From positions 5,890-69,889 of the forward strand of contig CAUUJG010000005.1 of the NCBI GenBank assembly GCA_963545485.1: a stretch of DNA of 64,000 nucleotides, in the 5' to 3' direction. The stretch comes from an uncultured Clostridia bacterium (GTDB lineage: Bacteria > Bacillota > Clostridia > Christensenellales > CAG-917). Below, one piece after another: positions 12,140-29,801 of the stretch (its first letter is position 1; every line of letters begins with the position of its first letter). The notes below the pieces were generated by a model, which worked only from the letters and a program-made list of their open reading frames with translations, ran no database searches and had not been told where the DNA came from. A program made the position numbers and the translations under genes.

Positions 12140-12279
12140 CGCACCCAAAATTGCTACCTGATCATATCGAATTTACCCCAAATATTGCCCCTACACGCCC
12201 TAGTTTTAACGATTTAGTTTCTTTCGATGACATTATCAACGGCGAGTGGAGAGACCTGAGATTGCGAGGAAATGGTTAT
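12140..12279 (+). repeat. island repeat copy R1 (B segment only), abutting the tRNA-Ser 3' end
   Basis: The core ...cccaaaattgctacctgatcatatcgaattt...cattatcaacggcgagtggagagacct...ggaaatggttat recurs at 15499, 17700 and 24697, and in diverged form near 22130. Confidence 0.9.
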
Positions 12280-12995: not shown

Positions 12996-13271
12996 AATAG
13001 CTTACCTCTTTTATATGTCCATCTTTTCTATTTTTATTTTTTGAATCGTCCTTTCTCATTATTTCCAACATCTCCTATTTTTTCTACAGCTCTATCGTAA
13101 CATAATAACGGAACTTTTCACTAACGCCAAAATCGCCCGATAGAATTAGACGGGAACAAAAAATCAGCAGACAATATTTGCCTAATTACTCAATTCAAGA
13201 ATAGACCTGTTCGATAACCATTTCAAAACAATAGCAATCAGTTATAATATATTGAGTGATAAAAATGAACC

Positions 13272-14237
13272 ATGAGGAGGATGAGGATGAAAAAACGACT
13301 ACTTTCAATGAAAGCCGACGGATTTTATGGGATTTGGTATCCGAATTCCAAGAGAGAAAGTCACTGCGGTATGATACTTATGCTTGGTGATTCTTCGGAC
13401 GGCAGGATGGTTTGTGCCGGGGTAAAATGGGTGCATGGGCAAGGACTTCATGCACTTTCACTTTCGCCTGGGAAAAAGGATCTCGGTCGACACAATTATC
13501 CGTTGGAATTCGTGGGAAAGGCGATTGAATTCCTTCGAACTCAAGGCTGTGAGAAAATCGGAATTTGCGGAGTATCTGCAACGGGGATAACAGTTCTTCT
13601 TGCCGCATCTTATTATTCGGACATCAGTCTTACCATAGCAATGACTCCTGCGGATTTTGTCATGGAGGGGTATTATAGGGACGGTGCGGACGGTGCTCAC
13701 GAGCGACCGGGAGATCATGAATCCTCCGTGTCATGGGAGGGAAAACCTTTGCCGTATTTGCCTTATGCTTACAGACATCCGGAGTATTGGAAAAAAATTA
13801 AAGAAGAGTCCAAAGCGGGCGGTGATTTGATCGCAGCTCGAAAGATGTTTGATGAATCGGAACGTCGTCATCCCGTCACCGAAGAAGAAACGATTAAAAT
13901 AGAACGTATTCACGGGAAGATGGTTTGTATCGGAGCGGAAGATGACGTTTTGTGGGATACCTGCAAATATATTCGAAGAATGCAGCGGAGACTGGAACGG
14001 CTCCCACACAACTGTGATTTCGAGGCATTGACTTATGAACACGGGACACATTTTATATTTCCGGAATTCATGTTGAAACGGATATTTCCGATCGGCTCGG
14101 GACTTCTGATGGGATTTATATTTAAGGCGGCAAGAGAATATCCGAAGGAATGCAAAGAGACAAGATTGGATATTGACAGGAGACTTATGCGGATAATCAG
14201 TAAATGGTCAAACGAAAAAAAAAAGAAAAGCCATTAA
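13272..14237 (+). CDS. alpha/beta hydrolase, BAAT / acyl-CoA thioester hydrolase C-terminal-like
   Basis: 321 aa with a nucleophile elbow GVSATG and a C-terminal HGTHF. GC content is clearly higher than the flanks. The likely true start is the ATG at 13287, 6 nt after AGGAGG. Confidence 0.6.
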   Translation: MRRMRMKKRLLSMKADGFYGIWYPNSKRESHCGMILMLGDSSDGRMVCAGVKWVHGQGLHALSLSPGKKDLGRHNYPLEFVGKAIEFLRTQGCEKIGICGVSATGITVLLAASYYSDISLTIAMTPADFVMEGYYRDGADGAHERPGDHESSVSWEGKPLPYLPYAYRHPEYWKKIKEESKAGGDLIAARKMFDESERRHPVTEEETIKIERIHGKMVCIGAEDDVLWDTCKYIRRMQRRLERLPHNCDFEALTYEHGTHFIFPEFMLKRIFPIGSGLLMGFIFKAAREYPKECKETRLDIDRRLMRIISKWSNEKKKKSH

Positions 14238-14334
14238 TTTCCAGCTTAATGACATCGGTCTTTAACCGAGGCTGTCGATTTTTTAATGACCCCATCAAAA
14301 ATCTATCAAAATTAACACATCAATTCATGAAAAA

Positions 14335-14435
14335 TAAAAAAGCACCTATTTCTAGATGCCATAGTATTAAAGTCTTCACCATATTCTCCCAACAACTCAA
14401 CTCATCAATAATCGACAATCTAACCCACTCAATTA
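14335..14435 (+). repeat. island repeat fragment (A segment only)
   Basis: aaaaaagcacctatttctagatgccatagtatta..cttcaccatattctcccaacaactcaactcatcaataa... matches the A segments at 15349, 17540 and 24530. Confidence 0.85.
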
Positions 14436-14535
14436 ATAAAAACCCCCATCAAAAAACATTATCAAGGATGATACGCTACTAGACTTTTATTAATGACTTT
14501 TTCGCTACATGAGATTTTTTGTTAAAAGTTTTCTA

Positions 14536-15210
14536 TTAGATGAAATTTACTCTTCGATCTATTTCTTCATGCCATTCATCATCGTAATCTTTATAAAACC
14601 TAAAAAGACCTTTAAACGATTTCTTATTATTATTTAAATATGACCTTGAAAACTGGCAGTTGATACGTTGCAGACTTTCACAATTATAAAATGCCTCATC
14701 CTCAATACTTTTCACTGAACTTGGGATTATTATTTCTGAAATTGATGTCCCAAGAAATGCTGCAGCACCTATCTTTTCTAATCCTTGATTTAGCGTTATA
14801 GTTTTCAAATTTTTACAATAATAAAATGCATTTGTCCCTATTATTTTTATCCCATTTCCAAATGCAACCTCTCTTAAATTTGTACATTGATTAAAAGCAT
14901 GAGATTGAATTTCTTCTACTGAATTTGGAATATTCACTTTTTCAATATATTCCTTAAACATAAATGCCCTTTCGGATATTCTATTTATTGGATACCCTTT
15001 ATATTTTGTAGGGATATTTACATTTTCTCCAACACCTATGTATTCTTTTATTGAGTACCCGTTAGCAACTCTTTCCATTTTAAAATTTTTTTCTATATCT
15101 GCATCAGTCATAATCTTCTTTGTAGTCGCTCCATTTGAACAACCAAACAATGACATTGATAGTAGTAAAATTAAAGATATAAACAATGCTAACTTGATTT
15201 TTTTATTCAT
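14536..15210 (-). CDS. lipoprotein with BspA-type leucine-rich repeats
   Basis: 224 aa with a signal peptide and lipobox (LFGCSNG). Repeats follow the pattern I.IP.SV..I...AF..C..L. It is a paralogue of the C-terminal half of 15703-16890. Confidence 0.75.
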   Translation of the reverse strand: MNKKIKLALFISLILLLSMSLFGCSNGATTKKIMTDADIEKNFKMERVANGYSIKEYIGVGENVNIPTKYKGYPINRISERAFMFKEYIEKVNIPNSVEEIQSHAFNQCTNLREVAFGNGIKIIGTNAFYYCKNLKTITLNQGLEKIGAAAFLGTSISEIIIPSSVKSIEDEAFYNCESLQRINCQFSRSYLNNNKKSFKGLFRFYKDYDDEWHEEIDRRVNFI

Positions 15211-15242
15211 AAAACTCCCCTCGAAAATAAATTATTAAAAAC

Positions 15243-15273
15243 ATTCTACCCCCCCCCCATTTTAATTTGTCAA
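15243..15273 (-). promoter_or_regulatory. sigma-A-type promoter with a G10 tract inside the spacer
   Basis: The minus strand reads TTGACA(15273-15268)-AATTAAAAT-G10(15258-15249)-TAGAAT(15248-15243). The spacer is 19 nt. RBS GAGGGGAG and the ATG at 15210 follow. Confidence 0.65.
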
Positions 15274-15632
15274 TACCATAGTGAATTTTAAGTTATGAAA
15301 GACACATGAAATAGCCATTCAAAAATTAATCAAGAGACTCATAGAAAATAAAAAAATACCTATTTCTAGATGCCATAGTATTAGAGGCTTCACCATATTC
15401 TCCCAACAACTCAACTCCTCAATAACCGACCATCTACCCCACTTAATCACCCAAATTCAATGCCTCATTCCACAAGTATTATTAAACTTAATCTATGCGC
15501 CCAAAATTGCTACCTGATCATATCGAATTTGCCCAAAATATTGCCCCTACGCGCCCTAGTTTTGATGGTTTCGATTCTTTCGATGACATTATCAACGGCG
15601 AGTGGAGAGACCTTAGAATGCGAGGAAATGGT

Positions 15633-15669
15633 TATAAATAAAATATGGACATCGGTGAGGACATCCATA
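15633..15669 (-). terminator. intrinsic terminator at the end of repeat B
   Basis: The minus strand reads TATGGATGTC-CTCACC-GATGTCCATA (10-bp stem including 2 G-U pairs) followed by TTTTATTTAT. It lies 34 nt after the stop of 15703-16890. Confidence 0.6.
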
Positions 15670-15702
15670 GTTATAATTTTGATATTGATTTAATTTTTTG
15701 TT

Positions 15703-16890
15703 CTATCCGTTTACCCAGTTGATTATAGATTCTTTTTCAAGTAGTCCTCTAAATTTACTCTCATTAGCTTGAACATAACTTTTCTTTAACTTACATTCTA
15801 TTGACCTAAGTTTATCGCAAAAGTTAAATGCCCTTTCTCCTATCTCTTCTACTGTACTTGGAATTGTTATTTCTTCGATACCTGTTTCATGAAACGCACT
15901 TGGTTCTATTTCTTTTAAGCCTTCATTTAGAGTCACTTTTTTAAGATTTGAACAACCCGCAAAAGCAAGTTTTCCTATTTTTTCTAATGTGCTTGGCATT
16001 CTTATTTCTTCGATACCTGCTCCAGCAAACGCTACTTGTTCTATTTCTTTCAATCCTTCATTTAGAGTCACTTTTTTAAGATTTTTACACCCCCAAAAAG
16101 CACCGCCTCCTATCTTTTCTAATGTACTTGGCATTGTGACTTTTTCTATATTGCTATCGAAAAATATTTTAGCTCTTGTCTTTTTACACGTTAATGGTTT
16201 AGTTAATTTCTTTAGAAAAGCTACTTCCTTTAAAAAATCAGAAAACGCTCCTTCTATTATTTCTATTATTTTATAACCTTTATAAATACTAGGAATTCTT
16301 ACATCTGTTGCTTCTCCCTTATATTTCGTTATTACCAATCCGTTTGGAACTCTTACTATTTCAAACAACTTTTTTATCTCGGCATCGGTCATCTTTATTT
16401 CAACTTCTTGATCCAAATCAAAATCTTCACTAGGGGATTTCTTAATATGAGCAAGTCCCAAATTACTATTTAACGCAAGTAATTCCATCTTCTTCTTTTC
16501 AAATTCTTCTTGAGTTATTATGCCAAGATCAAGTAACTCTTTTAATTTTCTTAGTTTAGTAATATTTTCTGCTGGCATGTTGTTTTGTGTTGTTTCTCGT
16601 GCCACATTCTTTTTATTCTTAATATCTTCATCTTTAGAATTTGCCACCATAAATAAAGCCACAACTGGAACAATGGGAATAAAAAACCCTACTATCAAAA
16701 GTATCCATATCGTATTATCATTTACAGATTTATTTTTTTTATTTTTGCCGTACTCAACAGTTACAACTATATGAAAGACAAAAGCTATTGTGACCAGAAT
16801 ATGCCCTATACCTATTATTAACGTTAGATAGCCCACTATATATAAGATAGCTGCATCTTTTGCCATTTTTTTAAGTTCATGTGATTCCAT
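15703..16890 (-). CDS. membrane protein with SHOCT domain and BspA-type LRR domain
   Basis: 395 aa. The N-terminal 2-3 TM region and the LRKLKELLDLGIITQEEFEKKKMELL (SHOCT) motif are paralogous to 16925-17407. The C-terminal LRRs are paralogous to 14536-15210. Confidence 0.75.
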   Translation of the reverse strand: MESHELKKMAKDAAILYIVGYLTLIIGIGHILVTIAFVFHIVVTVEYGKNKKNKSVNDNTIWILLIVGFFIPIVPVVALFMVANSKDEDIKNKKNVARETTQNNMPAENITKLRKLKELLDLGIITQEEFEKKKMELLALNSNLGLAHIKKSPSEDFDLDQEVEIKMTDAEIKKLFEIVRVPNGLVITKYKGEATDVRIPSIYKGYKIIEIIEGAFSDFLKEVAFLKKLTKPLTCKKTRAKIFFDSNIEKVTMPSTLEKIGGGAFWGCKNLKKVTLNEGLKEIEQVAFAGAGIEEIRMPSTLEKIGKLAFAGCSNLKKVTLNEGLKEIEPSAFHETGIEEITIPSTVEEIGERAFNFCDKLRSIECKLKKSYVQANESKFRGLLEKESIINWVNG

Positions 16891-16924
16891 TTCCCCTACT
16901 CCAAGTTAATTACTATAGTACATG

Positions 16925-17407
16925 TCATGCTAGTAGTTCATTTTTCTTCTTATCAAATTCCTCTTGAGTTATTATTCCTGAATCAAGCAACTCTTTTAGT
17001 TGTTTTAGTTTTTCAAAGTTATCAACTGTTTCTTCCCCTTTAGAGTTTTCAGCAGACATATTATTTGTAGTTTCTCCACTCAACTTTTTAGAATTTGCAA
17101 CTAAAAACAAAGCTACAATTTCAACAATATGCACAAAAAATCCGATTATCAATAATATAAAAACAGTATCTTTGCTATCTTTAGAAAATCTTCCATACTC
17201 AACTGTTACGATTATATGAAGTATAAAACTAACTAAATACATCGCACTAGCTATCGAATAAGTGATGACATATGCTATCACCATTCCCTTAGGATTTGCA
17301 GTTACGAGTGCCATAGCTATTATAAGTCCTACTATAATTAACACAAAAACTAGAATTTTTAGTATTGCAGTATTCTTTGCAAGTTTTTTGATTTTATTAA
17401 TTTCCAT
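16925..17407 (-). CDS. membrane protein with C-terminal SHOCT domain
   Basis: TM helices plus LKQLKELLDSGIITQEEFDKKKNELLA. The ATG at 17407 is preceded by GGAGGAA. The track ORF starts at a TTG at 17419. Confidence 0.75.
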   Translation of the reverse strand: MEINKIKKLAKNTAILKILVFVLIIVGLIIAMALVTANPKGMVIAYVITYSIASAMYLVSFILHIIVTVEYGRFSKDSKDTVFILLIIGFFVHIVEIVALFLVANSKKLSGETTNNMSAENSKGEETVDNFEKLKQLKELLDSGIITQEEFDKKKNELLA

Positions 17408-17435
17408 TATTTCCTCCAAAATTTAATATATTAAA

Positions 17436-17466
17436 ATCTTACCCCCCCCCCATTTAATTTTGTCAA
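17436..17466 (-). promoter_or_regulatory. sigma-A-type promoter with a G10 tract inside the spacer
   Basis: The minus strand reads TTGACA(17466-17461)-AAATTAAAT-G10(17451-17442)-TAAGAT(17441-17436). The spacer is 19 nt. RBS GGAGGAA and the ATG at 17407 follow. Confidence 0.65.
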
Positions 17467-17832
17467 TAGTTGAGTGAATTCGAGGTTATGAAAACATATG
17501 CAGTGGTCATTCAAATTAATATGATAATTCTTGGAAAAATAAAAAAGCCCCTATTTCTAGAAGCCATAATTTGAGAACATTCACCATATTCTCCCAACAA
17601 CTCAACTCATCAATAACCGCACATCTAACCCACTCAATTGACCAAATTCAACACCTCTGCTCCACAAGTATTATTAAGCTTAATCTACAAACCCACGCAC
17701 CCAAAATTGCTACCTGATCATATCGAATTTACCCAAAATATTGCCCCTATGTGCCCTTGTTTTGATGGTTTGATTTCTTTTGATGGGATTATCAACGGTG
17801 AGCGGAGAGACCTTGGAATTGAGGGAAATGGT

Positions 17833-17869
17833 TATAATAAAATATGGACATCGTGTTGGGACATCCATA
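17833..17869 (-). terminator. intrinsic terminator at the end of repeat B
   Basis: The minus strand reads TATGGATGTC-CCAACAC-GATGTCCATA followed by TTTTATTAT, downstream of res. Confidence 0.55.
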
Positions 17870-17961
17870 CTCTTAATATTTTTCTTTATTTGATTATAAA
17901 CTCTCCCCCTAACAAACTATTTCATAAATCCTAATTGTTTTGTCATATGGCACATCACCAT

Positions 17962-20175
17962 TTAGAAAATTTTTTCTATTGGCATCCATCTATTGTCTGA
18001 CATTTTCAATACGAACTCAGTGTTGTTGATATAAAGGTTATTGTCGACGTCACGAACAAAACCCCAACTTAGATGTTTTTCATTTGCATATTTCTTAAGT
18101 GCATTAAATTTATTACCAATCTGGGCATCTATATTCTTGTTTGTTCCAGCAATCTCGCCACCTTTTGTTTCAATAACCCACACCGTCCCATCTTTCTTTT
18201 TTACAATATAGTCTGGATAAAATAACCATTGTTTTTGAACAGCATCGATATATACAATTGAAAAATATTGTTGACCAGAATCGCCGTTTTTATACACCCA
18301 ATCAATATCATCTCTTCTTTCACAATACTGTTCAAATAATTGCTCACAAGTGCTTCTAATCAATCTCGTATTAAATTCAGATGTGTACCCATCATAGGCA
18401 TTACTCAATATGTCAATGACCTTTTTAGTAGTTGGATCGTATTTAAAAAAATCTTCAACTAGCATATGGAAGGTTGATGTTTTCACAAACAAATCCATTC
18501 TGCCCTGTTTAACCATTCCAGCTGTTACTTCTTTGAATTCTTCTTTTAGTTTTTTTTCATTGTTGATTATAAAGGCATAGAAGAAATCTGTATCGAGATT
18601 GAGCAGTTTCTTATATTTGTTTGTTTGTTTTTTGAACAAGCGTTCTAGAATTGCTTTTGTCTGTTTTGTTTCAAGACCAATGACTTTTTTAAGTTCATCA
18701 GTAGCATGTAACAAATAAATACCATGTTTATGCGTATTCACCTTTCTTTTAGTTTCAATTACTCGTGCTGTCTCATCACCTACTGTCTCTGTTTTTACAT
18801 AAGTACCAGTCAGTGTTTGACCAAGCAATGAATCGCCAAATACATATCCAGCATTTTCAAGTTTTAGTTGATTTTGTTTTTTATCGGCGGTTAGCTTGTA
18901 TTTCTCCACAAAGAAATCGTATATCTTATTCGAGACATCACGCTCCCCCATTATTGATAAATCACGATCACGAACTTGTTTTTCGAGCTCAAATGTTTTG
19001 CATTTATCCTTTAGAAATAGACGCCTCGTTTCGTACGCCTTATCCATTTGTTCAAGCAATCCGTTTTTCCAAATCTCGTCGAATGTATATACGAAGCAAT
19101 AGTCAAGAAGATTATCTTCATAATGTTTCGCTTCTGGCATCCTTCTAATTCTACCGATTGTTTGAATCTCAAATTGCTCACTCATTCCCTCACGAAGTTT
19201 CACTAGGATCTTTGCACGTGGACAATCCCAACCTGTGCTGATAGCTTGTTTCATGAGTAAAAAGACTGGTGTTGCATCATTGTCGGTCAAATTCTCAGGC
19301 AAATCCCGCTTGTCCTCGCTCATCCACTTACTAACAAATCCGTTCTCATATGTATAACCCATATCCCTAAGTTTTTGTTCTACTGCTTCTATTGTTTCTG
19401 GTTGTCCGTTTGGAAATTGAATTAATACAAGAGGTCTGATTTTCTTTTCTATTTCATTGTATCGTTTTTGAATAGCTTTTCTCTTTTCATCTGCAAGTTC
19501 TAATAACCTATCATAGTCATTATCTATTACTTCCCCACGCTCAATGCCTTCATTGACTGACAGTGCTTTTGTTATTAACCCTGCGTCAATCACCCTTCTT
19601 TCGTCAATTTCATAGTACTCAAACCTTTTATTCTCTCTAGCAGTGGCACTCATCCTTATTATGTGTTTGGCAGTGAAAGAGTCAATTATTGCATTTGCTT
19701 TCGCAGTATTATTGGAGTGTTCCTCATCAATTATAATGATAAAATATATATTGTTGCACCTTGCTTCATCAATTCTATCATACAATGTTTTCCGTTCACT
19801 CTCGGTTATTGCCCTATTACCAGTCTTCGTCACTAATTCCCAATTAATAAATGTCGTGCTTCCCGCTGTAAAACCGCTGGTTAAGGCATCATTTAATGTT
19901 TGTGCTTTCATGGTTGGGGCTATTTTTAGCATCTTTCGACGGCTTTGTTCCTCGAGGTCTCCTTTGCCAGGACATAACCATATAAAAGCAACATTTTTGT
20001 CAACTTTATTAAAAAACTCGTTTATGTAATTGATGAGAATTATTGTTTTACCTGAACCAGTAGGTGATTTAATCGTTACAGTCGGTTTATGATTCCCTGT
20101 CGTTAATTCAATTAACTTTATTACCGCATCTTCCTGAAAATCAAAAAGTTTGATATTCACATTTCCACTTACCAT
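17962..20175 (-). CDS. res: Type III restriction enzyme, Res subunit (SF2 helicase plus PD-(D/E)xK nuclease)
   Basis: 737 aa with Walker A SPTGSGKT, DEEH box IIIDEEH, a helicase C-terminal QTIGRIRR motif, and a C-terminal PDYIV...VIETKGG nuclease motif. The start overlaps the mod stop (ATGGTAA). Confidence 0.85.
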   Translation of the reverse strand: MVSGNVNIKLFDFQEDAVIKLIELTTGNHKPTVTIKSPTGSGKTIILINYINEFFNKVDKNVAFIWLCPGKGDLEEQSRRKMLKIAPTMKAQTLNDALTSGFTAGSTTFINWELVTKTGNRAITESERKTLYDRIDEARCNNIYFIIIIDEEHSNNTAKANAIIDSFTAKHIIRMSATARENKRFEYYEIDERRVIDAGLITKALSVNEGIERGEVIDNDYDRLLELADEKRKAIQKRYNEIEKKIRPLVLIQFPNGQPETIEAVEQKLRDMGYTYENGFVSKWMSEDKRDLPENLTDNDATPVFLLMKQAISTGWDCPRAKILVKLREGMSEQFEIQTIGRIRRMPEAKHYEDNLLDYCFVYTFDEIWKNGLLEQMDKAYETRRLFLKDKCKTFELEKQVRDRDLSIMGERDVSNKIYDFFVEKYKLTADKKQNQLKLENAGYVFGDSLLGQTLTGTYVKTETVGDETARVIETKRKVNTHKHGIYLLHATDELKKVIGLETKQTKAILERLFKKQTNKYKKLLNLDTDFFYAFIINNEKKLKEEFKEVTAGMVKQGRMDLFVKTSTFHMLVEDFFKYDPTTKKVIDILSNAYDGYTSEFNTRLIRSTCEQLFEQYCERRDDIDWVYKNGDSGQQYFSIVYIDAVQKQWLFYPDYIVKKKDGTVWVIETKGGEIAGTNKNIDAQIGNKFNALKKYANEKHLSWGFVRDVDNNLYINNTEFVLKMSDNRWMPIEKIF

Positions 20176-21889
20176 GATTCTCCAACCTCCTTCATTTCAA
20201 AATCAAAATAATAATCTGGAATTGTTTGTATTTTCACTTTATCAAAAAGCTCTATCTGCTTAGTCGATAACAAAACTTCTCTAGAAATGTATATACACTC
20301 TGGAAAATTGTTTTTATCCCATTTTGCTTCCAAATCGTCTGCAGCACTATCGTTTAATAAAACAACATATTTCTTGCCGTCAATCTTTATTCCATTTTCA
20401 AGTTGTATCATTTCACATACGTGTTCAAGTAAGGCATCTAATAAAAAGTCCTCATCTCGTGATACAAAATCTGTCTTGTAATATTTTAAATTATGTGGTA
20501 ACTCCTTCTGAATATTCTTAAGCCTTTGATAGGTGACTTCCTCGCAAATTTTATTCTCATTATTCGTGCAAAGTATATATCTGCGATTCCCGCCATCTTC
20601 TTTGTTTAATTCAATCACTGCATGACCTGTTGTACCTGAACCCGCAAAAAAATCTAAAATTATTGTGGGTTCGCTATTCTTTGTTTCTGCACTTTTAATC
20701 AAGCGTTTTAATAACTTTAATGGTTTTGGATAATCAAATTTACCTCGACCTAATATTTTGATGACTTCATTGTTCCCGTTTGTTGAATCAGTAATTATAT
20801 TTTTTAAATTCGTAGAGAACATGTCTCTAATTTTTGTAAATATCCTAAATGTGTCTCCGTCCTTTTGAAAATGAAGATTTTCTACATCTTCACAAACTTT
20901 TTTTTCAGACCATCTCCATGCATGAAATTTATGTATACCATCTGCATTGTTGTGAGGTTTTATCAAAACAAAATTTGGATCTATTTTTTTTACTACTTCT
21001 CCATCATCTATCTTGGCAGTAATTACTTCTTTCGTTCTATCATTATAATAAATGTTATAAACTAAATTTGGTCTAGTTTCTTCATTGAAGGCAGAGTTCG
21101 TGTTAAATAACTCATTTTTAATCACATACTCACTTATTTTGTCTTTATATATTCTATATTCATTGTTTTTATAAATTGAAGGCATTTCTGTCGACAATTC
21201 TCTTATGTCTCCCTTAAAAGTATGAATATTTTCACCTGTTGCCGCATATAACAAAATATTTTCATATGTCTTGACAGCTCCACCACGCCCAATTTGTCTA
21301 CCTTTAGAATTATTTATCCATACAAAATCTGAAATAAAATTTTGTTCACCAAATATAGAATCACATAAAAGTTTTAAATTATACAACTCGTTATCATCAA
21401 TACTGATAAAAATAACACCGTTTTCTTTTAGTAATTGTTTTGCTATGCATAATCGTTTTGCCATAAAAGATAGCCATTTTGAATGTCTATAGCCATCTTC
21501 TTCTCCAACCATTGCATCATCATAAATAAATTCCTTCCCCGTGTTGTATGGCGGATCAATATAAATTACATCAATTTTTCCCTTATGTGTTTTTTGTAAT
21601 AAATACAGAGAGTGTAAATTGTCTCCCTCTAGTAGAAAATTATACCCCCCCCCCGCACATTGCTTATTATTTTTTCTTTTACTTCGGTAAAAACAGGAAT
21701 ATTGCCCCGTATATTATCATCAACTGTTTCTGTATGTTCCTCCCAAACCAAACCATACTTTTTACTTTTCAAAGCACTCTCAATTTCCCCAATTGCTACA
21801 AGGGACTCATCATCTGTCTTATTTTGTTCTTTAAGTTGTTGAAGAAAATTTAGCATCTTTTCTCTCTTCAGTTTTGATATATTCCCCAT
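20169..21889 (-). CDS. mod: Type III R-M Mod N6-adenine methyltransferase, frameshifted at a G10 tract (phase-OFF as assembled)
   Basis: The ORFs 21629-21889 and 20169-21512 are two pieces of one gene. With G11 or G8 the frame reads ...RGGGGYNFLLEGDNLHSLYLLQKTHKGKIDVIYIDPPYNTGKEFIYDDAMVGEEDG..., running into the 447-aa ORF that carries motif I (LDFFAGSGTTGHA). Confidence 0.85.
21645..21654 (-). repeat. homopolymeric G10 (C10 on the plus strand) inside the mod coding sequence
   Basis: Counted directly as 10 consecutive C at 21645-21654. The reading frame breaks immediately downstream (TAG at codon 87). Confidence 0.95.
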
Positions 21890-22049
21890 TTTTGCTCCTT
21901 ATTCTTTTTTATTGGCGAAAACATGCCAAACTTTAATACATATTAATTAAATAAGAGAGAAATATCAATTTAATTTATTAGTGACGACTGCCATGAGCCC
22001 GCATCACACGGTTGTCCAATAGAATTTAGTTTGATTAAAATATTTTGAT

Positions 22050-22305
22050 AACGGTACATCTAATTCACCTAATACAAGACATCCCCCACTCCAAATCCCT
22101 TATCAAGAATATTCTACAAACCCACCGCCAACAAATCACTAACGGATAATATCAAAACTAGCCCAAACATTGCCCCTACATGCCCTAGATTTCGTGACTT
22201 TGATGTTTATGACTACATTATTCACCGTGAGATACTAACCCCTTAAATAATAGGAAATGATTATGTATGGGAATAAAATATGGGCATCGGTTAGGACATC
22301 CATTT
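22050..22305 (+). repeat. island repeat copy R4 (diverged A+B)
   Basis: Retains ...ctacaaacccac...cattgcccctacatgccctag...attat.caccgtgag...ggaaatgattatg...aaaatatgggcatcggttaggacatccat in the same order as the other copies. Confidence 0.7.
22272..22303 (-). terminator. intrinsic terminator at the end of repeat B
   Basis: The minus strand reads ATGGATGTC-CTAACC-GATGCCCAT followed by ATTTTATT. It lies 16 nt after the stop of 22319-22849. Confidence 0.5.
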
Positions 22306-22318
22306 CAACTATTTTATT

Positions 22319-22849
22319 TTAGTCAATATCTTCTTTGACATTTATGATTTTCCCTATCAAACATTTCTTCCCAATCAGTCTATTCAAAATGTCTAGCCCT
22401 GACTTATGCATCTCGATTCCAGCGTTAGAAAAACAATACTCCGTTAAAACAATAGGCATTATACCCTTTTCAAACAAGTCTACCGCTATCTTTAGAACAC
22501 AACAATCAGTATCAACTCCACAGACATGTACTTTATTTGGCACTCTGTTATTGTTTAATTTTTTAAGTAAATCTATAAAGTCATTATTAACGCAAGTATA
22601 TACTTCCTTATCAACTACTTCATCTGCTTTAATTCCATCAACCAAATCGATATCTGGATTCTTTGAAAGTTTATCCCAGTTTAAATATTTCCTAAAAGGG
22701 CTTTCTTCCTTATTTATAAATCTAGTGGCTACTACTTTATCAAAACTGCCATTCCTAGTTAGGGCTATAATTTTATCCGCTACCTCTCTAGTTTCATTCG
22801 TTTGGCAAAACCCATTCTGTATATCCACTACAATTAAAATCTTATTCAT
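22319..22849 (-). CDS. isochorismatase-family cysteine hydrolase (nicotinamidase-like)
   Basis: The protein starts MNKILIVVDIQNGF (catalytic Asp block) and contains VCGVDTDCCV (nucleophile Cys block). The ATG at 22849 lies 7 nt after the upstream gene's TGA, with RBS GAGGGA overlapping that stop. Confidence 0.8.
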   Translation of the reverse strand: MNKILIVVDIQNGFCQTNETREVADKIIALTRNGSFDKVVATRFINKEESPFRKYLNWDKLSKNPDIDLVDGIKADEVVDKEVYTCVNNDFIDLLKKLNNNRVPNKVHVCGVDTDCCVLKIAVDLFEKGIMPIVLTEYCFSNAGIEMHKSGLDILNRLIGKKCLIGKIINVKEDID

Positions 22850-22856
22850 TAATCCC

Positions 22857-24083
22857 TCATTTATTTTTATAGTTAAATAATACTGTAGCAATTGCAACCG
22901 CCAATAAGGCAATAAATAATATCCAATTTCTCCAACTAAATTGACTTTTCACGATATCCCAAACTGTTTTATACAATGATGACGCTGTGAAAACTGCTAG
23001 GAATATATCAACCACCACTTTGTTCTTTTTCTTCCTGTCTAGATTTTGTGCCTCTTTTATTTTCTTTTGAATACTTATTTGATTTGCTACTGATTTATAT
23101 AATTGTTTGACTTCTGATGTAGCTATTACCTTTTCAAGTATTGTTTTATACAGTGAACTCATATTGGCACTTATTCCATTCTCTAACTCTGAATGTGAGT
23201 ATTCAATTAAACTTGCTAGCCTTTGCAAACTCTCCATACTGCATGTACTAGTCTTGGTTATGTTGTCCATACAATTGTCGGCAATAAACCATCTAGATTG
23301 GATATATGCCTCTACTTTAATTAACTCAGAAATCAATGGTATGTTCAAAACTTCTTCATAGCTTGTTAAATTTCTTTCTGCCTCAACTGCTACACCAGAC
23401 CAAGAGTAATATGATAAGGCATTGTCTGCTTCCAATACGTACTTTACTTTTTCTGCTTTACTTGCTTTTATATTTTTATCTATATTTGCCCATTCACTAT
23501 TAGTAGTAACTTTGTTAAAAATCTTTGACTCCATTAAGTGATTAATTTCATTTTCGTTCAATGCATTCTTATTAATCAAATAAACTGTCAACACATACGA
23601 CAACCCATCGGCTTTATATGTTTTTGCCCCTGAAAATTTTCTAGTATGTGGAATCAATTTTTTCTTTACGCCCTCGCCTACTATCTTCCAACATAAATCA
23701 CGGAACAACTCCATCATCTTTTTCTCTTCTGCAAAAATTTCCTTATCTTCGAAACGATTCAATATTGCTGCTTGAGATACTTCTTTTTGATAGTTTGCTA
23801 ATAAAGCCTTGCTATATGTAAAAATTGATTTGTCGGTATTCTTCAGTGCGTTACCATCAAAGTCTGAAAGCACGAATATCCCCACTCCATTAGACAGGAC
23901 ATAACATTTTAAATGTGGCAACAAACTTGCAATGCAAATAGATGAGTCCACAAGGTCACTATTATCAAATGAAATCCCATCAACAGTCTGCCCTAAATAT
24001 TTTAAAGTGATATTGTCTTTTACCTCTATTCCATATTCTTTAGCTATATTTATGAGGTTTTGATTGAATGATTTTGCGAACAC
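22857..24083 (-). CDS. hypothetical protein with a C-terminal transmembrane anchor
   Basis: 408-aa ORF with no motif I can assign. The C-terminus has WILFIALLAVAIATVLF (TM). The start is a GTG without a visible SD, so the 5' end is uncertain. Confidence 0.5.
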   Translation of the reverse strand: MFAKSFNQNLINIAKEYGIEVKDNITLKYLGQTVDGISFDNSDLVDSSICIASLLPHLKCYVLSNGVGIFVLSDFDGNALKNTDKSIFTYSKALLANYQKEVSQAAILNRFEDKEIFAEEKKMMELFRDLCWKIVGEGVKKKLIPHTRKFSGAKTYKADGLSYVLTVYLINKNALNENEINHLMESKIFNKVTTNSEWANIDKNIKASKAEKVKYVLEADNALSYYSWSGVAVEAERNLTSYEEVLNIPLISELIKVEAYIQSRWFIADNCMDNITKTSTCSMESLQRLASLIEYSHSELENGISANMSSLYKTILEKVIATSEVKQLYKSVANQISIQKKIKEAQNLDRKKKNKVVVDIFLAVFTASSLYKTVWDIVKSQFSWRNWILFIALLAVAIATVLFNYKNK

Positions 24084-24289
24084 TGAATTTTTGAATTATT
24101 GACACTTAAACAATCATTGAAAATACACCCTAAATCAAAAGGGATAATGTGCACTTGTTGAATTGGGTTGCTTTCTATTACAAATTGCCTAGTCACATAT
24201 TTATTATACAACCTAAAATTAAATTTTCTATCACTGAATATACTAAAGTAATGGCTAGTTCATAAGCTTCGTAGTCACAACATCAACAA

Positions 24290-24335
24290 AATAAAAAAGC
24301 ACCTATTTCTAGATGCAATTTTATGAGAGCCTCGA
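24290..24335 (+). repeat. island repeat fragment (start of A)
   Basis: aaaataaaaaagcacctatttctagatgcaattttatgagagcc matches the first ~45 nt of the A segments. Confidence 0.7.
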
Positions 24336-24529
24336 GCCCTGGTCTTATAAACCCAGTTTTTAACGACTGGCTGTTCTCTCGTTACGACCTCAATCGTACC
24401 ACGCTTTTTTACGGCGTCAAATCGTAAATAAAATATAAAGGAGCTTTATAAAAATGTCAAGATGTCGTTGAAAAACAAATCTCCTAAGAGGACATTAAAG
24501 AGTTATCAATATTAATATGACACATCATG

Positions 24530-24872
24530 GAAAATGAAAAACGCCTACTTATAGATGCCATAGTATTAGAGCCTTCACCATATTCTCCCAACAACTCAAC
24601 TACACAATAACCGCATATCTAACCCACTCAAATATCCTAATTAAACACCCCCACCCCATATGTATTATTGAACATGCTCTACAAACGCACAACGACAAAA
24701 TTGCTACCTGATCATATCGAATTTACCCCAAATATCACCCCTGTGTGCCCTTGCTTTGATGATTAGGATTCTTACGATGGCATTATCAACAAAAAGTGGA
24801 CTAACCCTAGAATGGCAAAAATAATTGTGTGGAGAATAAAAAATACGGACATCAATTGGGAGATCCATATGC
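24530..24872 (+). repeat. island repeat copy R5 (A+B)
   Basis: ...cttatagatgccatagtattagagccttcaccatattctcccaacaactcaac...caaaattgctacctgatcatatcgaatttacccc...cattatcaac...acggacatcaattgggagatccata. Confidence 0.88.
24838..24869 (-). terminator. intrinsic terminator at the end of repeat B
   Basis: The minus strand reads TATGGATCTCCCAATTGATGTCCGTA (imperfect stem) followed by TTTTTT. It lies 21 nt after the stop of 24890-26104. Confidence 0.5.
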
Positions 24873-24889
24873 TTGAAACTCTACACCTA

Positions 24890-26104
24890 TCATTTGTTTT
24901 TATTGATTTGCTTAATTAAGTAGTTCAAAAGCACTTCACTGTAGTCCATTGGTATATCCTTTGTATGCTTATATAACGCATTACAAAAATCTAGGTAATA
25001 CGGATCATTGACATTTTTTGAAACTAAATAATTATAAATATCTCTGTATCTTATTTCTTTATATAACTTACTACCCTCATATAATGACAAATCTAGTTTG
25101 TTATGATTCGGTAAAAATAGAAAATACGATGCTCTTTTATGTTTCTCTCTAGCATAGTTCTCAGCGAAACTATAATACTTTGATAATTGAGATTGTATCA
25201 AACAACCATCACTAAAATCATGTCGATATGAAACTCCATTAATTCCCGATTTTATTTTGTTTTCAATAATAAGAATATTCGTATCGTCTTCAATCCATAA
25301 ATCAATATTATGAAACTCTCTTTTTATACTATATGTAGGATTTATATTGATATTTAAAATTTCTCTTGCGAAGTCTACAAATAAATAGCTGTATTTACTA
25401 AAAAAATAATTGAACATATTTGAGAAAGACAATTCATCATCCTCTTTGCCGATTAAGGTTAAAAAATTAAAATGATTATTATGTTTCTCGTTATCTATTC
25501 TAGTTATTATTTCACACCAAATCTCCTCGTCATTAATCATCCTCATAATTTCATTAAAGGAATCAGGTGTACTAATGTCGTCAACATACATATGCAGTGA
25601 CTGCTTTGCGAAACGTTTGTCCGCCATTTTATAAGAAACAATACAGTCACTAACTGTTTTATTGTAATGCGAATCTAATATAAAGATTTGTCTCTTCGGA
25701 TACAACAGTTTCTCTGATTTAAAAGTTATAGGCACCCATTCTTCTGTATCTTTTATGTAAGGAACTCCGCCATAATTAATAGGATGTTTTTTAGTATATT
25801 CTTTTAGCTCATGTGAACAAATTCCAAGTTTTTCTTTTAACCTGCATCCTTTTGCATGCACCAACTGACTTTCATCATTTAAGATACTAACCCCTATTAC
25901 TTCAAAACACCCAGTTTCATATAATCTCGTGTGAATAACTGCACGAACCGTATTATCATACCTTGAATTAAACAAGCCTTGAGGATTAATAAAGCAATAA
26001 TTTATTCCCTCATCTGAATGAAGTAAATTTATAACCTCGCCACCACCAATACCACGAGTCAAATACTCTCCAGCATACATTCTATTAATAATAATTGAAT
26101 TCAT
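24890..26104 (-). CDS. PD-(D/E)xK nuclease-family protein with an unassigned N-terminal domain
   Basis: The C-terminal half has NIDLWIEDDTNILIIENKIKSG...QLSKYY (D...E-x-K core). The ATG at 26104 overlaps the upstream TAA (TAATG) and is preceded by GAGAGGA. Confidence 0.65.
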   Translation of the reverse strand: MNSIIINRMYAGEYLTRGIGGGEVINLLHSDEGINYCFINPQGLFNSRYDNTVRAVIHTRLYETGCFEVIGVSILNDESQLVHAKGCRLKEKLGICSHELKEYTKKHPINYGGVPYIKDTEEWVPITFKSEKLLYPKRQIFILDSHYNKTVSDCIVSYKMADKRFAKQSLHMYVDDISTPDSFNEIMRMINDEEIWCEIITRIDNEKHNNHFNFLTLIGKEDDELSFSNMFNYFFSKYSYLFVDFAREILNININPTYSIKREFHNIDLWIEDDTNILIIENKIKSGINGVSYRHDFSDGCLIQSQLSKYYSFAENYAREKHKRASYFLFLPNHNKLDLSLYEGSKLYKEIRYRDIYNYLVSKNVNDPYYLDFCNALYKHTKDIPMDYSEVLLNYLIKQINKNK

Positions 26105-26622
26105 TATATTTCCTCTCTCGAGACATAACACATTGATGCTTTCTCATCTGGTAGCACTAAATAAAACTCCACATCAAACTCGTCAATAAGTTCTCTTAGT
26201 TTTTCATACACTTTAGATCCAACACATTCATGCTTATAGCCGTGATGACCCGTTCCCAAACTAACACTAATAATATTTTTATAACCCCTTTGGGCAGCAC
26301 TATTGAATATTAAATAATAACTATCAAGCAATTCCACATAAGGATTTGTTGATTCAAAGAACTTCGGACAATAGATATGTAAAATATCCACATTTAAACC
26401 AAAATCTGGCGTGAATCGTATCTCATTCACTTCCATATTTTTAGTAAATTTTTTTTGACAATAATCTTCTAATTCTCGCATGCCTGCTCGTTTATATGTT
26501 TGTCCACAAATGCCACTGCCATATAACATATATTTATTATTGCTATTAACGATTAAATCTTTGCCACCCAAATAGTCGAATAAAGTGCCAGTTACTATGT
26601 GCAGTTTGTTAGTTCTTTCCAT
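26104..26622 (-). CDS. macrodomain (ADP-ribose binding/hydrolase) protein
   Basis: 172 aa with IVNSNN...GSGICGQ and ISVSLGTGHHGY blocks. These correspond to the macrodomain NAAN...GGGV and ISFP.IStG.yG motifs. Confidence 0.7.
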   Translation of the reverse strand: MERTNKLHIVTGTLFDYLGGKDLIVNSNNKYMLYGSGICGQTYKRAGMRELEDYCQKKFTKNMEVNEIRFTPDFGLNVDILHIYCPKFFESTNPYVELLDSYYLIFNSAAQRGYKNIISVSLGTGHHGYKHECVGSKVYEKLRELIDEFDVEFYLVLPDEKASMCYVSREEI

Positions 26623-26701
26623 AAATTACCTTTGAGCATATATTACGTCACTAATGTCAAACATCTTTGCAATGCACACCTTTACTTTATTCCTTATATT
26701 T

Positions 26702-28108
26702 TTACAGCAACCTCTTGTATATATCTAACATACTTTCCATTTGATATTTTAATAGCCAAGCGACATCATTATATTCACTTGTTTTCTTTATTGTTTCTAA
26801 TAACTTTGGATAATATCTCTCAGTTTCTTTTATCATTTGAAACATCCTCTCCTTACTAAGTCCCCACGACATTGTTGTTAAGTTATTGCAACGATCAATA
26901 CACTTTGTTATTGATGCCTTTACATTGCAGCAAATTGTATTGTAGTACATTTCCATATCGCTTTCAGTTGTATTCTCTTTTGATTTCCTTCTTGTCATAA
27001 GTCTTACTATTTCTTTCGATTCGTCTCCAACTGGTAACTCACGCTCTTCCTTCCCGCAATCTTCAATTACATCGTGTAAAAGTATTGCGGAAATTAACGC
27101 ATCATCTCTAATCCCCATTGCCAGTGCGTGACAAGCCATATTTAAGGGATGATATATGTAAGGAACTTCTGAGTTTTTTCTTGTTTGTCCATAATGTGAT
27201 TCTACTGCATACTCAATACTCTTTAATGTATCATTCAAGTTGCATTTCTTTGCTACTCGCTCAACATATTCCCTCATGTGTTCCCAATCATATATTGCTT
27301 CCTTTGTTTTAAAATCTTTCCCTTTTATACCAATCCTTCGAATTTCTTCAACACCCACAATTTGCAATTTTCTTATCCCCTGTCTGAATTTTTCAAATTT
27401 GTTTGCACGTCTAAAAGGTAATGTTGGAAAGATTGTCGCACACATTGCTGTTAGAATACCTATAGGTATACACAATCTCACCATAAAATTTATTAATTCT
27501 ACCTTCATATTACTATTTAAATTTTGCAAGTAACCGCCACTTAATACCAAAAACAATGGGAAAATAAAAGTTGAAAATATTTGTAAAACTACTATTGCAC
27601 CCTTCCATTCATAAGTTTTTTTATTTCTCAAAATTTCTATTTCACTAGCAATTGCATCTAGTGCTTTTTCATCTGCTGTGTCTACTTTTTTAGCTATAAG
27701 TAGTTCATTTAAGACTCTTGCTTCTTCTAAATCTGATTCCCCTATAAGTGGGTCGACTTCAACTGCTTTTTTTAAGGTTATATTAGCATTAATACAAAAC
27801 CATAAACCCACAATGAAAAATAAGATAACACAAACTATAAAAACATAAAATTCCTTTATGGTCCCAACTTTGAGAGCAAACACTCTTATTCCTTCTACAC
27901 CTATAATGATAAGCAAAATCGAACACAAAACTGAATAAATAATACCCTGTATTTTTCTTTCCTTTCTACTCTTTTCAAATCCACTTTCTTCTAATTTTTC
28001 ATTAAATGCAGGTTTCTTTCCTTTAGACTGTTTTTTCTCTTCTTTTTTCCTTTTTTCCTCATTGTTTAGTTTTTTAACATACTGTTTTGCTAATTCTTCC
28101 ACCAACAT
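26702..28108 (-). CDS. multi-pass membrane protein with a C-terminal SpoT/RelA-type HD hydrolase domain
   Basis: 468 aa with a Lys/Glu-rich N-terminus and about 6 predicted TM helices. The C-terminal part has YIYHPLNMACHALAMG...LLHDVIEDCG (the H...HD...ED pattern of (p)ppGpp-hydrolase-type HD domains). Confidence 0.65.
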   Translation of the reverse strand: MLVEELAKQYVKKLNNEEKRKKEEKKQSKGKKPAFNEKLEESGFEKSRKERKIQGIIYSVLCSILLIIIGVEGIRVFALKVGTIKEFYVFIVCVILFFIVGLWFCINANITLKKAVEVDPLIGESDLEEARVLNELLIAKKVDTADEKALDAIASEIEILRNKKTYEWKGAIVVLQIFSTFIFPLFLVLSGGYLQNLNSNMKVELINFMVRLCIPIGILTAMCATIFPTLPFRRANKFEKFRQGIRKLQIVGVEEIRRIGIKGKDFKTKEAIYDWEHMREYVERVAKKCNLNDTLKSIEYAVESHYGQTRKNSEVPYIYHPLNMACHALAMGIRDDALISAILLHDVIEDCGKEERELPVGDESKEIVRLMTRRKSKENTTESDMEMYYNTICCNVKASITKCIDRCNNLTTMSWGLSKERMFQMIKETERYYPKLLETIKKTSEYNDVAWLLKYQMESMLDIYKRLL

Positions 28109-28295
28109 AAATCCTCCTCAAAAATACAAGTTTTGTTATATATAAAATCTTGTGGCACATATTAATTAAATTAGCCTCAAAGTAAATCCCTAATTCCTCT
28201 CAATCTATTCCTAAAAATCATATCACGCATTAATTTTTCAAACTATTCGTAGCTTCAATATTATTTTTACACAACAATTCTTACATTCCCAACTT

Positions 28296-28664
28296 TCATA
28301 GTTCTAATTTAATTCCTTTTCCCCTCAGATTTTCTATACACTCAATTAGATACTCTTTATTATGTTCTTTGTAAATTGGACTTTCTAAAACTTTTTCTTC
28401 AAGAATATTGTAATTTTCTGTTCTCTTCCCTCTATAATTCTTATCTCTCCACTCTTTAGAAACTTTATACCCTCTTTTTTCCATTTCATCCATAACTACT
28501 GAATGATAAATAAATAAGTAATATGGAGAATATGAAAATACATAATCTACTATTTTATGTTTCTTTTGCCATCCATTTCCCCTAAGTGCACAGCATTCTC
28601 TATGTTGTCCAAGAAGCTGGTTTTTAGGCAATAGATGAATGATTTGTTCATGCCATAGTCTCAT
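28296..28664 (-). CDS. pyrimidine-dimer DNA glycosylase (T4 DenV / TIGR02328-like)
   Basis: 122 aa. MRLWHEQIIHLLPKNQLLGQHRECCALRGNGW matches the conserved N-terminus of the DenV-like family. Confidence 0.7.
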   Translation of the reverse strand: MRLWHEQIIHLLPKNQLLGQHRECCALRGNGWQKKHKIVDYVFSYSPYYLFIYHSVVMDEMEKRGYKVSKEWRDKNYRGKRTENYNILEEKVLESPIYKEHNKEYLIECIENLRGKGIKLEL

Positions 28665-28665
28665 T

Positions 28666-29051
28666 TTATTCTCCTCTTAATAAAGTGGATTCTTGTAAAT
28701 ATTTATTTGGATATTTCTTTAGCAAATTATTGATATATTCAATTAACGATTCCTGATTATTATTTTGTCTCATATATTCTTCCAGTATGCTAAATAACCC
28801 TTGTTTTTCCACTTCAGTTGCTTGATTCTTAAAATATCCCCATATGTGAAAAATGGCATTCTTAAAATCTTTTTTACTTTCTTTTATATTCCTTGCCTTT
28901 TGTATTCTTTCATTAAGGATCAAAATATCAACTTCTTTTTCTTTCAGATACTCTCTATTTCTAAGTACACTTTATGTGATTTGCTTAATACATAATATTT
29001 ATTTTTTACCCATAGCTCTTCACATTCTCTTTTTATATTCTTGTGGTTCAC
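28666..29051 (-). pseudogene. DUF1722 (YbgA-like) gene, apparently frameshifted
   Basis: An N-terminal piece (GTG 29051 to TGA 28944, ...ELWVKNKYYVLSKSHKVYLEIESI*) and a C-terminal piece (ORF 28666-28923, ...HIWGYFKNQATEVEKQ...YL) lie in adjacent frames. The RBS AGAGGG precedes 29051. Confidence 0.5.
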
Positions 29052-29252
29052 ATTAGCCCTCTTTCCAAATATGAAAATAATACATCTATATAATGTTTCA
29101 AATTTTATAAAACAAAAACTTTAAATTCTTACCATTCATAACCTAATTTATAAACTTATATAACGTCACAAACCCTGTTAATTTTTCGAAATTTGCAATA
29201 CTAAATATATATTTGATTCTCCTGTTTCAAATCATAACTACAAATAATTCAG

Positions 29253-29801
29253 CTAATCTCCATTTATAAATATACAATCATCTACTACAACTTCATTCAA
29301 AGCAACTTTACTATAAAAATATTTCTCTTCATCTTTATATCTGTCTGTAACAAATATTAAGTTTTTATTTTTAGAACCTATTAGCAACCTATTTTCATCA
29401 ATTTGATTCTCAATAAACGGTCCATCTATCAAAAGATCTACGCTATTAACTAGTGCATTATCTAAACAATCTATATTTTTACCTGAAAACATAATTATTC
29501 CCAGCCCCAGCTCTTTAATTGCTTTATTAAATTCAATTAACCCCTGCTGTAGAGATGGTTCACCACCACTTAAAGTAACTCCTTCTATATCAAAATTTCT
29601 CTTTGCCTCTTTAACAATATCTATCAGCTTGCCTAATGTGACGATATGTTTAGGTAATAACTCCTGTAAATCTTTATTGCAACAACCTTTGCAATTAATA
29701 TTGCAACCCTGAAACCAAATACAGCATCTATTAAAAGGACCTTCAGTTTTTGTAAATAACTTTATATGTGCAATGTTAAACTTTATTTTATTTAAATCCA
29801 A
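29253..29801 (-). CDS. NrdG-like radical-SAM activase (4Fe-4S single-cluster domain)
   Basis: 182 aa with the CX3CX2C cluster GCNINCKGC, and with GVTLSGGEP and VDLLIDGPF...LLIGSKNKN blocks as in anaerobic RNR activases. It overlaps the upstream AAA+ gene by 14 nt. Confidence 0.75.
   Translation of the reverse strand: MDLNKIKFNIAHIKLFTKTEGPFNRCCIWFQGCNINCKGCCNKDLQELLPKHIVTLGKLIDIVKEAKRNFDIEGVTLSGGEPSLQQGLIEFNKAIKELGLGIIMFSGKNIDCLDNALVNSVDLLIDGPFIENQIDENRLLIGSKNKNLIFVTDRYKDEEKYFYSKVALNEVVVDDCIFINGD

Follow-up and report, generated by a model that had tools for sequence, protein, structure and literature searches.

The putative promoter of a BspA-like LRR lipoprotein gene in the window, the whole 64-kb stretch of DNA analyzed here, has a run of 10 G's (G10) between its -35 and -10 hexamers. 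We propose, with a probability of roughly 0.75, that this G10 is a hypermutable repeat in the spacer of a sigma-70-type promoter, and that slippage within it would switch the lipoprotein stochastically and reversibly. A phase switch at this site had been put forward in a first-pass annotation of the window, and that interpretation is supported by comparison with related promoters in other strains. The features discussed are listed in Table 1.

The G+C content of the window is 33%, and a script scan for G or C runs of at least 6 nt returned exactly 3, each of them a G10 with its G's on the minus strand. These 3 matches compare to 0.00 expected from 100 dinucleotide-preserving shuffles. Chance was rejected as an origin of the runs because none of the 100 shuffles yielded any G10. 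The G10 at the lipoprotein promoter is confirmed as real and non-random, and the annotation was right that a 10-nt G run is very unlikely by chance. A G-quadruplex was also considered and, by reasoning only, rejected because an intramolecular quadruplex cannot arise from a lone G10. Among A/T runs, just one in the window exceeds 8 nt, an A10 at 14215-14224, near the 3' end of a BAAT-family hydrolase ORF, where it codes for KKKK.

The hexamers of the lipoprotein promoter were assigned from sequence alone. They are 19 nt apart (9 nt plus the G10), and the sequence agrees with the first-pass description of a G10 inside the spacer of near-consensus hexamers. The distance from TAGAAT to the ATG is 32 nt, consisting of 20 nt, the ribosome-binding site GAGGGGAG and a further 4 nt; the 24 nt that had been counted from TAGAAT to the ribosome-binding site is corrected to 20 nt. 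The gene product matches Pfam LRR_5 (BspA-type) over residues 77-194 (E=3e-29), and reading of the translation revealed a lipoprotein-like signal peptide at the N-terminus (MNKKIKLALFISLILLLSMSLFG, then C; lipobox LFGC). A terminator hairpin is located 34 nt past the upstream gene, ahead of the lipoprotein promoter. Because this is a strong hairpin with a U-run behind the upstream gene, read-through into the lipoprotein gene is unlikely, and the terminator would insulate the promoter from it.

Table 1. Features of the window and of related contigs, with promoter elements and gene functions as predicted from sequence.
Feature	Position	Strand	Basis or remark
Whole promoter element of the LRR lipoprotein gene	15273..15243	-	TTGACA / AATTAAAAT / GGGGGGGGGG / TAGAAT; read from sequence
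-35 hexamer TTGACA	15268..15273	-	Sequence; invariant in 17/17 related promoters
9-nt AT-rich proximal spacer part AATTAAAAT	15259..15267	-	Sequence
G10 homopolymer, putative hypermutable element	15249..15258	-	Sequence, shuffles, orthologue comparison
-10 hexamer TAGAAT	15243..15248	-	Sequence; compared across promoter groups
Ribosome-binding site GAGGGGAG	15215..15222	-	Sequence; 4 nt before ATG at 15210
BspA-type LRR (LRR_5) lipoprotein gene, 224 aa	14536..15210	-	Pfam, translation
Intrinsic terminator hairpin and U-run	15644..15669	-	Terminator scan; -11.1 kcal/mol, z=-3.6
G10 tracts of the window	15249-58, 17442-51, 21645-54	-	Script scan of window
Paralogous promoter TTGACA-AAATTAAAT-G10-TAAGAT	17436..17466 (G10 at 17442-17451)	-	Repeat D7
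SHOCT membrane protein, 160 aa	16925-17407	-	Pfam SHOCT
SHOCT and LRR_5 protein, 395 aa	15703-16890	-	Pfam SHOCT and LRR_5
Type III mod ORF with internal G10	20169-21889 (G10 at 21645-21654)	-	ORF scan, Pfam, PADLOC
res gene	17962-20175	-	ResIII, REase_III
G-less homologous promoter TTGACA-17 nt-TATATT, fixed-spacer control	24460..24432	-	Alignment and sequence; another intergenic-module copy
Module copies in the window	15215-15700, 17413-17895, 24288-24869		Repeat analysis
Partial module copies	12141-12279 (abuts tRNA-Ser 3' end), 14304-14434, 22133-22303		Repeat analysis
Module ahead of group B / group A genes elsewhere	L012 4495-4943, L024 2572-2996		76-78% identity

Relatives of the lipoprotein promoter were collected by pattern scans of contigs, by a protein homology search and from the contigs of cluster members. 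The pattern scan of contigs from one genome per species gave 8 matches, of which the sole true relative was L006, an 'uncultured Clostridia bacterium' MAG; the others were in unrelated organisms. The identity of L006 to window 15275..13905 is 96.4%, with homology starting exactly at the -35 box. The scan of metagenome contigs gave a single match, L009, which was unrelated, and exact-protein look-ups of the window LRR lipoprotein, res and the SHOCT ORF (with TTG start) returned no match. The lipoprotein homology search yielded three groups, P0001 (98% identity), P0002 (58%) and P0003 (43%). Orthologues of the lipoprotein (P0001, P0255 and P0256) are referred to as group A, and the more distant paralogues as groups B (58%) and C (43%). 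The contigs encoding the orthologues were compared, and their downstream DNA was at least 96% identical.

The promoter comparison covered 17 related promoters with a G-run, including that of the SHOCT gene in the window. TTGACA was invariant and the G-run uninterrupted in all 17. The block between the two was a constant 9 nt, with varying sequence (AAATAAAAT, AAATCAAAC, AGATAAAAT, ATTTCAGAT, AAATTAAAT), and the -10 hexamer came directly after the G-run, reading TAGAAT in groups A and C, TAAGAT at the SHOCT promoter and GAGAAT in degenerate group B alleles. This TTGACA-9 nt-Gn-(-10) layout is kept in the paralogues of 58% and 43% protein identity, so that the spacer layout first described for one promoter recurs both at a second promoter in the window and in diverged paralogues. 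Between groups A and B, the 5' block (promoter, ribosome-binding site, signal peptide and first ~45 residues) is nearly identical, and the LRR body has diverged. Since the proximal 9 nt are fixed in length, the -35/-10 distance is 9 + n. The spacers seen among the G-run promoters were 17, 18, 19, 20 and 22 nt, and they straddle the optimum of 17 +/- 1 nt for the spacer of a sigma-70 promoter.

Three unrelated upstream contexts occur among the strains, whose sequences come together exactly at TATTGACA; this indicates that the conserved unit starts at the -35 box. The fact that strain homology breaks at precisely this point, and that a repeated intergenic module of ~440 nt has the promoter as its 3' end, could also be taken to mean that the G-run is outside a functional promoter, as a neutral slippery sequence or a cassette recombination junction, with transcription by read-through or from a promoter upstream in the D1-D2 part of the module. 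We consider this very improbable. The near-consensus hexamers have a constant 9-nt offset from the tract in every copy while the upstream DNA is replaced, and a terminator is present upstream of the promoter. Strains of the L006 type are without the D2 part of the module and still keep the sequence from TTGACA onward. Moreover, a neutral unbroken G-run of at least 8 would not survive divergence to 43% identity.

Spacers are fixed at 16-17 nt in the homologous promoters that lack a long G-run. One of these is the G-less promoter of another module copy in the window, and the others belong to the distant SHOCT homologues L022 and L023, which have TTGACA-ATATAAAT-GGGG-TTGC-TATCCT with only G4. Promoters predicted in the intergenic regions of sodA (TTGAAA-18-TATAAT), the pgk operon (TTGAGA-18-TATAAT, with TG), tRNA-Ser (TTGCCT-18-TATAAT) and tRNA-Gln (TTGCCA-17-TATAAT) show that the organism uses sigma-70-type promoters with 17-18-nt spacing. 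Perfect matches to TTGACA-N15-22-TAnnAT in the window were only the two G-tract promoters and three long-spacer matches, and are uninformative on promoter usage.

Similar elements were observed in unrelated DNA. A viral contig (L031 884-913(-), IMGVR_UViG_3300031555_001378) has TTGACA-ATTGTCGA-G10-TAGAAT, with an 18-nt spacer, as the single match in a viral contig scan for the architecture; this promoter-like element is 40 nt upstream of a ribosome-binding site and ATG. Three related Chloroflexi genomes (Anaerolineales MAGs; L003 934-954, L005 2685-2705(-) and L008 5673-5693) have TTGACAAAATAAAAT-G6/G9/G8-TA(A/G)TAT, respectively, upstream of genes for secreted PT-rich HExxH metalloproteases. 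This resembles an independent instance of G-run variation within a promoter spacer.

Tract lengths were read from assembled contigs, and the differences reported are between samples or assemblies. For group A, the tract was G10 in the window and in L024, L025 and L026, G9 in L006 and L027, G8 in L011, and G13 in L028 and L029; two further contigs were unusable, as L030 begins within the tract and L010 is garbled there (C7G7CG4). The first-pass annotation had predicted that loss of one or two G's would give spacers of 18 and 17 nt, and orthologues with G9 and G8 were indeed found with near-identical flanks. L027, L028 and L029 encode an identical 224-aa protein, yet have G9, G13 and G13. In pairwise alignments of the group A orthologues, the tract was the only indel or one of two. 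Group B had G11 in L012, G10 in L014 and L016, and G9 in L015, while L013 begins within the tract; these four measurable contigs differ by at most 1 SNP over 1.1-2.2 kb. L012 and L014 have 0 mismatches over 2246 nt, and their sole difference is one G. Both group C tracts (L017 and L018) were G9.

The group B alleles (P0002; L012 4943-5000, L014, L015 and L016) have lost 1 nt from the signal-peptide codons (MNKKIKLHCLYF, then a stop). Gene callers start these alleles at an internal Met, giving 227 aa, and the intact allele P0269 has 245 aa. The P0002 gene is probably a decaying copy in which the G-run still varies from G9 to G11. With a GAGAAT -10 hexamer and a frameshifted signal peptide, the variation of the group B tract reflects mutability and not selection for switching.

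No other sites in this DNA change nearly as fast as the G-runs, which is the signature of slippage-prone contingency repeats. It could be argued that the length differences come from poly-G sequencing or assembly, through two-color Illumina chemistry or homopolymer miscalls, and that the tract is really fixed. Short-read metagenome assemblies can miscall long homopolymers, several of the contigs have low coverage (e.g. cov 3.4), one contig has junk at the tract and two begin within it. G10 is also suspiciously modal (11 of 21 tract observations, with all three window tracts exactly 10), and technical bias could contribute to this, although the modal G10 might also reflect a default-OFF state. 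However, the tracts are internal to contigs and bordered on either side by unique conserved sequence, and the assemblies are independent, coming from different studies and made with different assemblers. The gap of 4-5 G's between G8/G9 and G13 is too big for a consensus miscall, and L028 and L029, from different samples, both have G13. In these contigs, A/T homopolymers of 7-8 hardly ever vary in length, and paralogues of 43-58% identity still have the tract. An artefact is therefore a highly unlikely source of the differences. Contigs that break at the tract (L010, L013 and L030) may hint at length heterogeneity within a clone. Taken together, the length variation with near-identical flanks, the conserved layout and the fixed spacers of the G-less homologues indicate that the tract is a hypermutable contingency repeat.

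Near-identical strains are separated by few other indels. One of these is in a poly-A run upstream of the T5orf172 gene (window 13076-13091(-)), with A6 in the window compared to A7 or A8 in the related contigs L024/L025 and L027/L028.

We infer that the hexamers are a promoter and that spacer length sets its expression. Replication slippage would add or remove G's in the spacer between TTGACA and TAGAAT. Tracts of G8 or G9 would give 17-18 nt, as in the housekeeping promoters of the window, and are predicted to be ON. G10 would give 19 nt and a weak or OFF promoter, and G11 to G13 would give 20-22 nt, with the hexamers misaligned for RNA polymerase and the promoter again weak or OFF. This prediction of G8/G9 as ON, G10 as weak and G11 or longer as OFF follows from the sigma-70 spacer optimum. 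Lipoprotein expression would be switched stochastically and reversibly across the population, with such switching presumed to occur within a clone. The window strain, with all three of its tracts at G10, would be in a predicted low or OFF state.

The tract could instead act as a graded rheostat, or through a regulator or DNA-shape effect beside the -10 hexamer, and not as a clean ON/OFF spacer switch. The tract lies directly against the -10 hexamer, within the extended -10 region, and such effects are known elsewhere: porA levels are graded, not binary (PMC3639595), and the effects of the poly-G tracts of Treponema pallidum tpr genes combine with a CRP-like regulator (PMC7864442). On the other hand, there is no evident regulator site, and spacers of 17 to 22 nt exceed the range of fine tuning by far. 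We regard a rheostat as unlikely, and it is a variant of the spacer switch and not a contradiction of it.

The spacer switch would also apply to a second operon in the window. The SHOCT promoter is 80% identical to the lipoprotein promoter over 61 nt (repeat D7). The SHOCT and SHOCT-LRR genes downstream of it are separated by a 34-nt gap in which a terminator scan was negative, and they are probably one operon under this second G-tract promoter. The tract of the SHOCT promoter was G10 in both genomes compared, the window and the near-identical L019, with no variation there.

[quoted passage not shown] The mod product matches N6_N4_Mtase and PADLOC MTase_III (E=4.6e-88), and the gene adjoins res. 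At G10 the frame is broken after 86 codons, splitting mod into ORFs of 86 aa and 447 aa. By translation, G8 or G11 would restore a Mod of 572/573 aa, and G9, G10, G12 and G13 are OFF. Over 16,066 nt, L019 matches window 31509..15448 at 99.907% identity and differs from it by 11 SNPs and 2 indels. The first indel is in the mod tract, which is G13 in L019 compared to G10 for the window strain; the second, near window 20011, puts a +1 G frameshift into res. The mod tract was G10 and frame-OFF in L020 and L021, a 76%-identical relative, so that all 4 mod alleles seen (window, L019, L020 and L021) were frame-OFF. The methyltransferase would be switched by frameshift through this intragenic G-run, and the tract is a candidate phasevarion. 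Type III mod genes are classical contingency loci, and the variation of this tract between near-identical strains is further evidence for G-tract contingency in the genome. Known phasevarions with Type III Mod (PMC5909438, PMC1976455) likewise have a simple sequence repeat (SSR) in the 5' coding region whose length sets the frame, and res is often inactivated, as it is frameshifted in one strain here. The likeness concerns the mod tract and not the promoter tract, and only OFF alleles (G10 and G13) were seen here. An internal promoter at the mod tract, where the G10 is followed by TATAAT, was rejected because no -35-like hexamer is present upstream and the sequence encodes a conserved part of Mod.

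The lipoprotein gene is inside a strain-variable island at ~12.1-24.9 kb that adjoins tRNA-Ser. The cassettes of the island are T5orf172/PDC-S57, the BAAT hydrolase, the LRR lipoprotein, SHOCT-LRR, the Type III R-M system and an isochorismatase. In place of these, GmrSD or other genes are present in other strains. The T5orf172 protein (window 12327-12995(-)) matches the PADLOC candidate system PDC-S57 (E=7.6e-60), and a GmrSD-type enzyme is encoded at the equivalent place in another strain (L027 2-2245). Because T5orf172/PDC-S57, Type III R-M and GmrSD-type genes are found there, the LRR surface-protein genes sit in a defence/variable island.

The intergenic module between cassettes is ~440 nt long and consists of a terminator hairpin, a 153-nt D1, a 126-nt D2 with a second terminator-like hairpin, and the promoter. 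The module had no match in Rfam at E<=1, and no recognizable integrase was found near its copies. The D1-D2 module was rejected as a structured RNA or riboswitch leader because of the lack of an Rfam match and a positive (penalizing) covariation term in RNAalifold; the D2 hairpin of the lipoprotein copy folds no better than shuffles, which also counts against such a leader. A separate observation concerns window 24288-24460(-), where a segment of ~135 nt that ends in an intrinsic terminator (fold z=-2.1) comes after the fixed-spacer promoter TTGACA-17-TATATT. This segment is conserved in L022 150-320 with compensatory changes in the terminator stem, has no Rfam match, and is a candidate small RNA or leader. 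A more novel but unlikely reading is that the module is a portable phase-variable expression cassette, and that the tRNA-Ser island is a contingency island whose surface-protein and anti-phage cassettes are swapped at the repeats. Surface proteins and restriction might then be switched stochastically in a coupled way, perhaps as phage-receptor/defence bet-hedging.

Repeat-mediated contingency loci are textbook in Neisseria, Haemophilus, Campylobacter, Helicobacter, Treponema and the mycoplasmas. To our knowledge, such loci are hardly documented in human-microbiota Clostridia, for which invertible promoters are the usual explanation of phase variation. A literature search for promoter-spacer poly-G switching in Clostridia found none, although absence is not proof. 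The vlp genes of Mycoplasma hyorhinis, which encode a family of variable surface lipoproteins, have poly-A in the -35/-10 spacer and switch independently, as reported by Yogev et al. in 1991 and Citti and Wise in 1995. In that system, a conserved 5' block (promoter, ribosome-binding site and signal peptide) is joined to a divergent mature region, as in the lipoproteins here; however, vlp has poly-A, a Mollicute host and tandem-repeat mature regions, compared to poly-G and LRR_5 domains here.

The closest counterparts are porA of N. meningitidis and the poly-G promoters of T. pallidum. The porA promoter has a poly-G of 9-11 between -35 and -10 in which one-G changes alter expression and strains differ (PMC3639595). 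Expression is high with 11G, ~2-fold lower with 10G and ~13-fold lower with 9G (PMC3639595). Both cases have poly-G in the -35/-10 spacer of a surface-protein promoter. However, porA is from a Gram-negative proteobacterium and is experimentally demonstrated, whereas the Clostridia switch is predicted from sequence. The porA optimum is also the longest common tract (11G, or 17 nt), with shorter tracts reducing expression, whereas here G10 is over-long and loss of G should activate. The first-pass annotation had drawn a spacer analogy to both opc and porA of Neisseria; it holds for porA (PMC3639595) but not for opc, in which poly-C overlaps the -35 box and is not purely in the spacer (PMC7864442).

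In T. pallidum, tp0126 has poly-G between -35 and -10 and functions best at 17-nt spacing, with 8 or fewer G's permissive and longer tracts OFF (PMC7864442). Promoter poly-G tracts of 7-12 are found across the tpr family; a genome has several variable tracts, which differ both between strains and within a strain (PMC7864442). As here, these are promoter poly-G tracts in a paralogous surface-protein family. T. pallidum is a spirochete, however, and the proteins are outer-membrane beta-barrel/porin candidates instead of LRR lipoproteins; in several tpr genes, the tract is just upstream of the transcription start site and not in a clear spacer as here. In Candidatus Mycoplasma girerdii, BspA-like proteins and a Type III mod (G8 tract) are SSR-variable in metagenome reads, and the dominant genotype has most loci OFF (PMC5476646). 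Both gene classes are those seen here, in an uncultured, host-associated, Firmicutes-affiliated organism. The BspA-like genes of Ca. M. girerdii differ in that they have intragenic dinucleotide repeats with translational frameshift, and not a promoter-spacer homopolymer (PMC5476646).

The mechanism itself is thus already known. What is new is its setting, an uncultured Clostridia lineage from human metagenomes, with a putative paralogous second switch and a candidate phasevarion nearby. If the proposed switch is true, this lineage would individually and stochastically switch a family of BspA-like LRR surface proteins, which are likely to be adhesins or targets of immunity or phages, together with a Type III methyltransferase. 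There would then be cell-to-cell heterogeneity that is hidden by consensus MAGs. Poly-G lengths in MAGs would hold biological information, and TTGACA-N9-Gn-TAGAAT would be a simple signature to mine in metagenomes.
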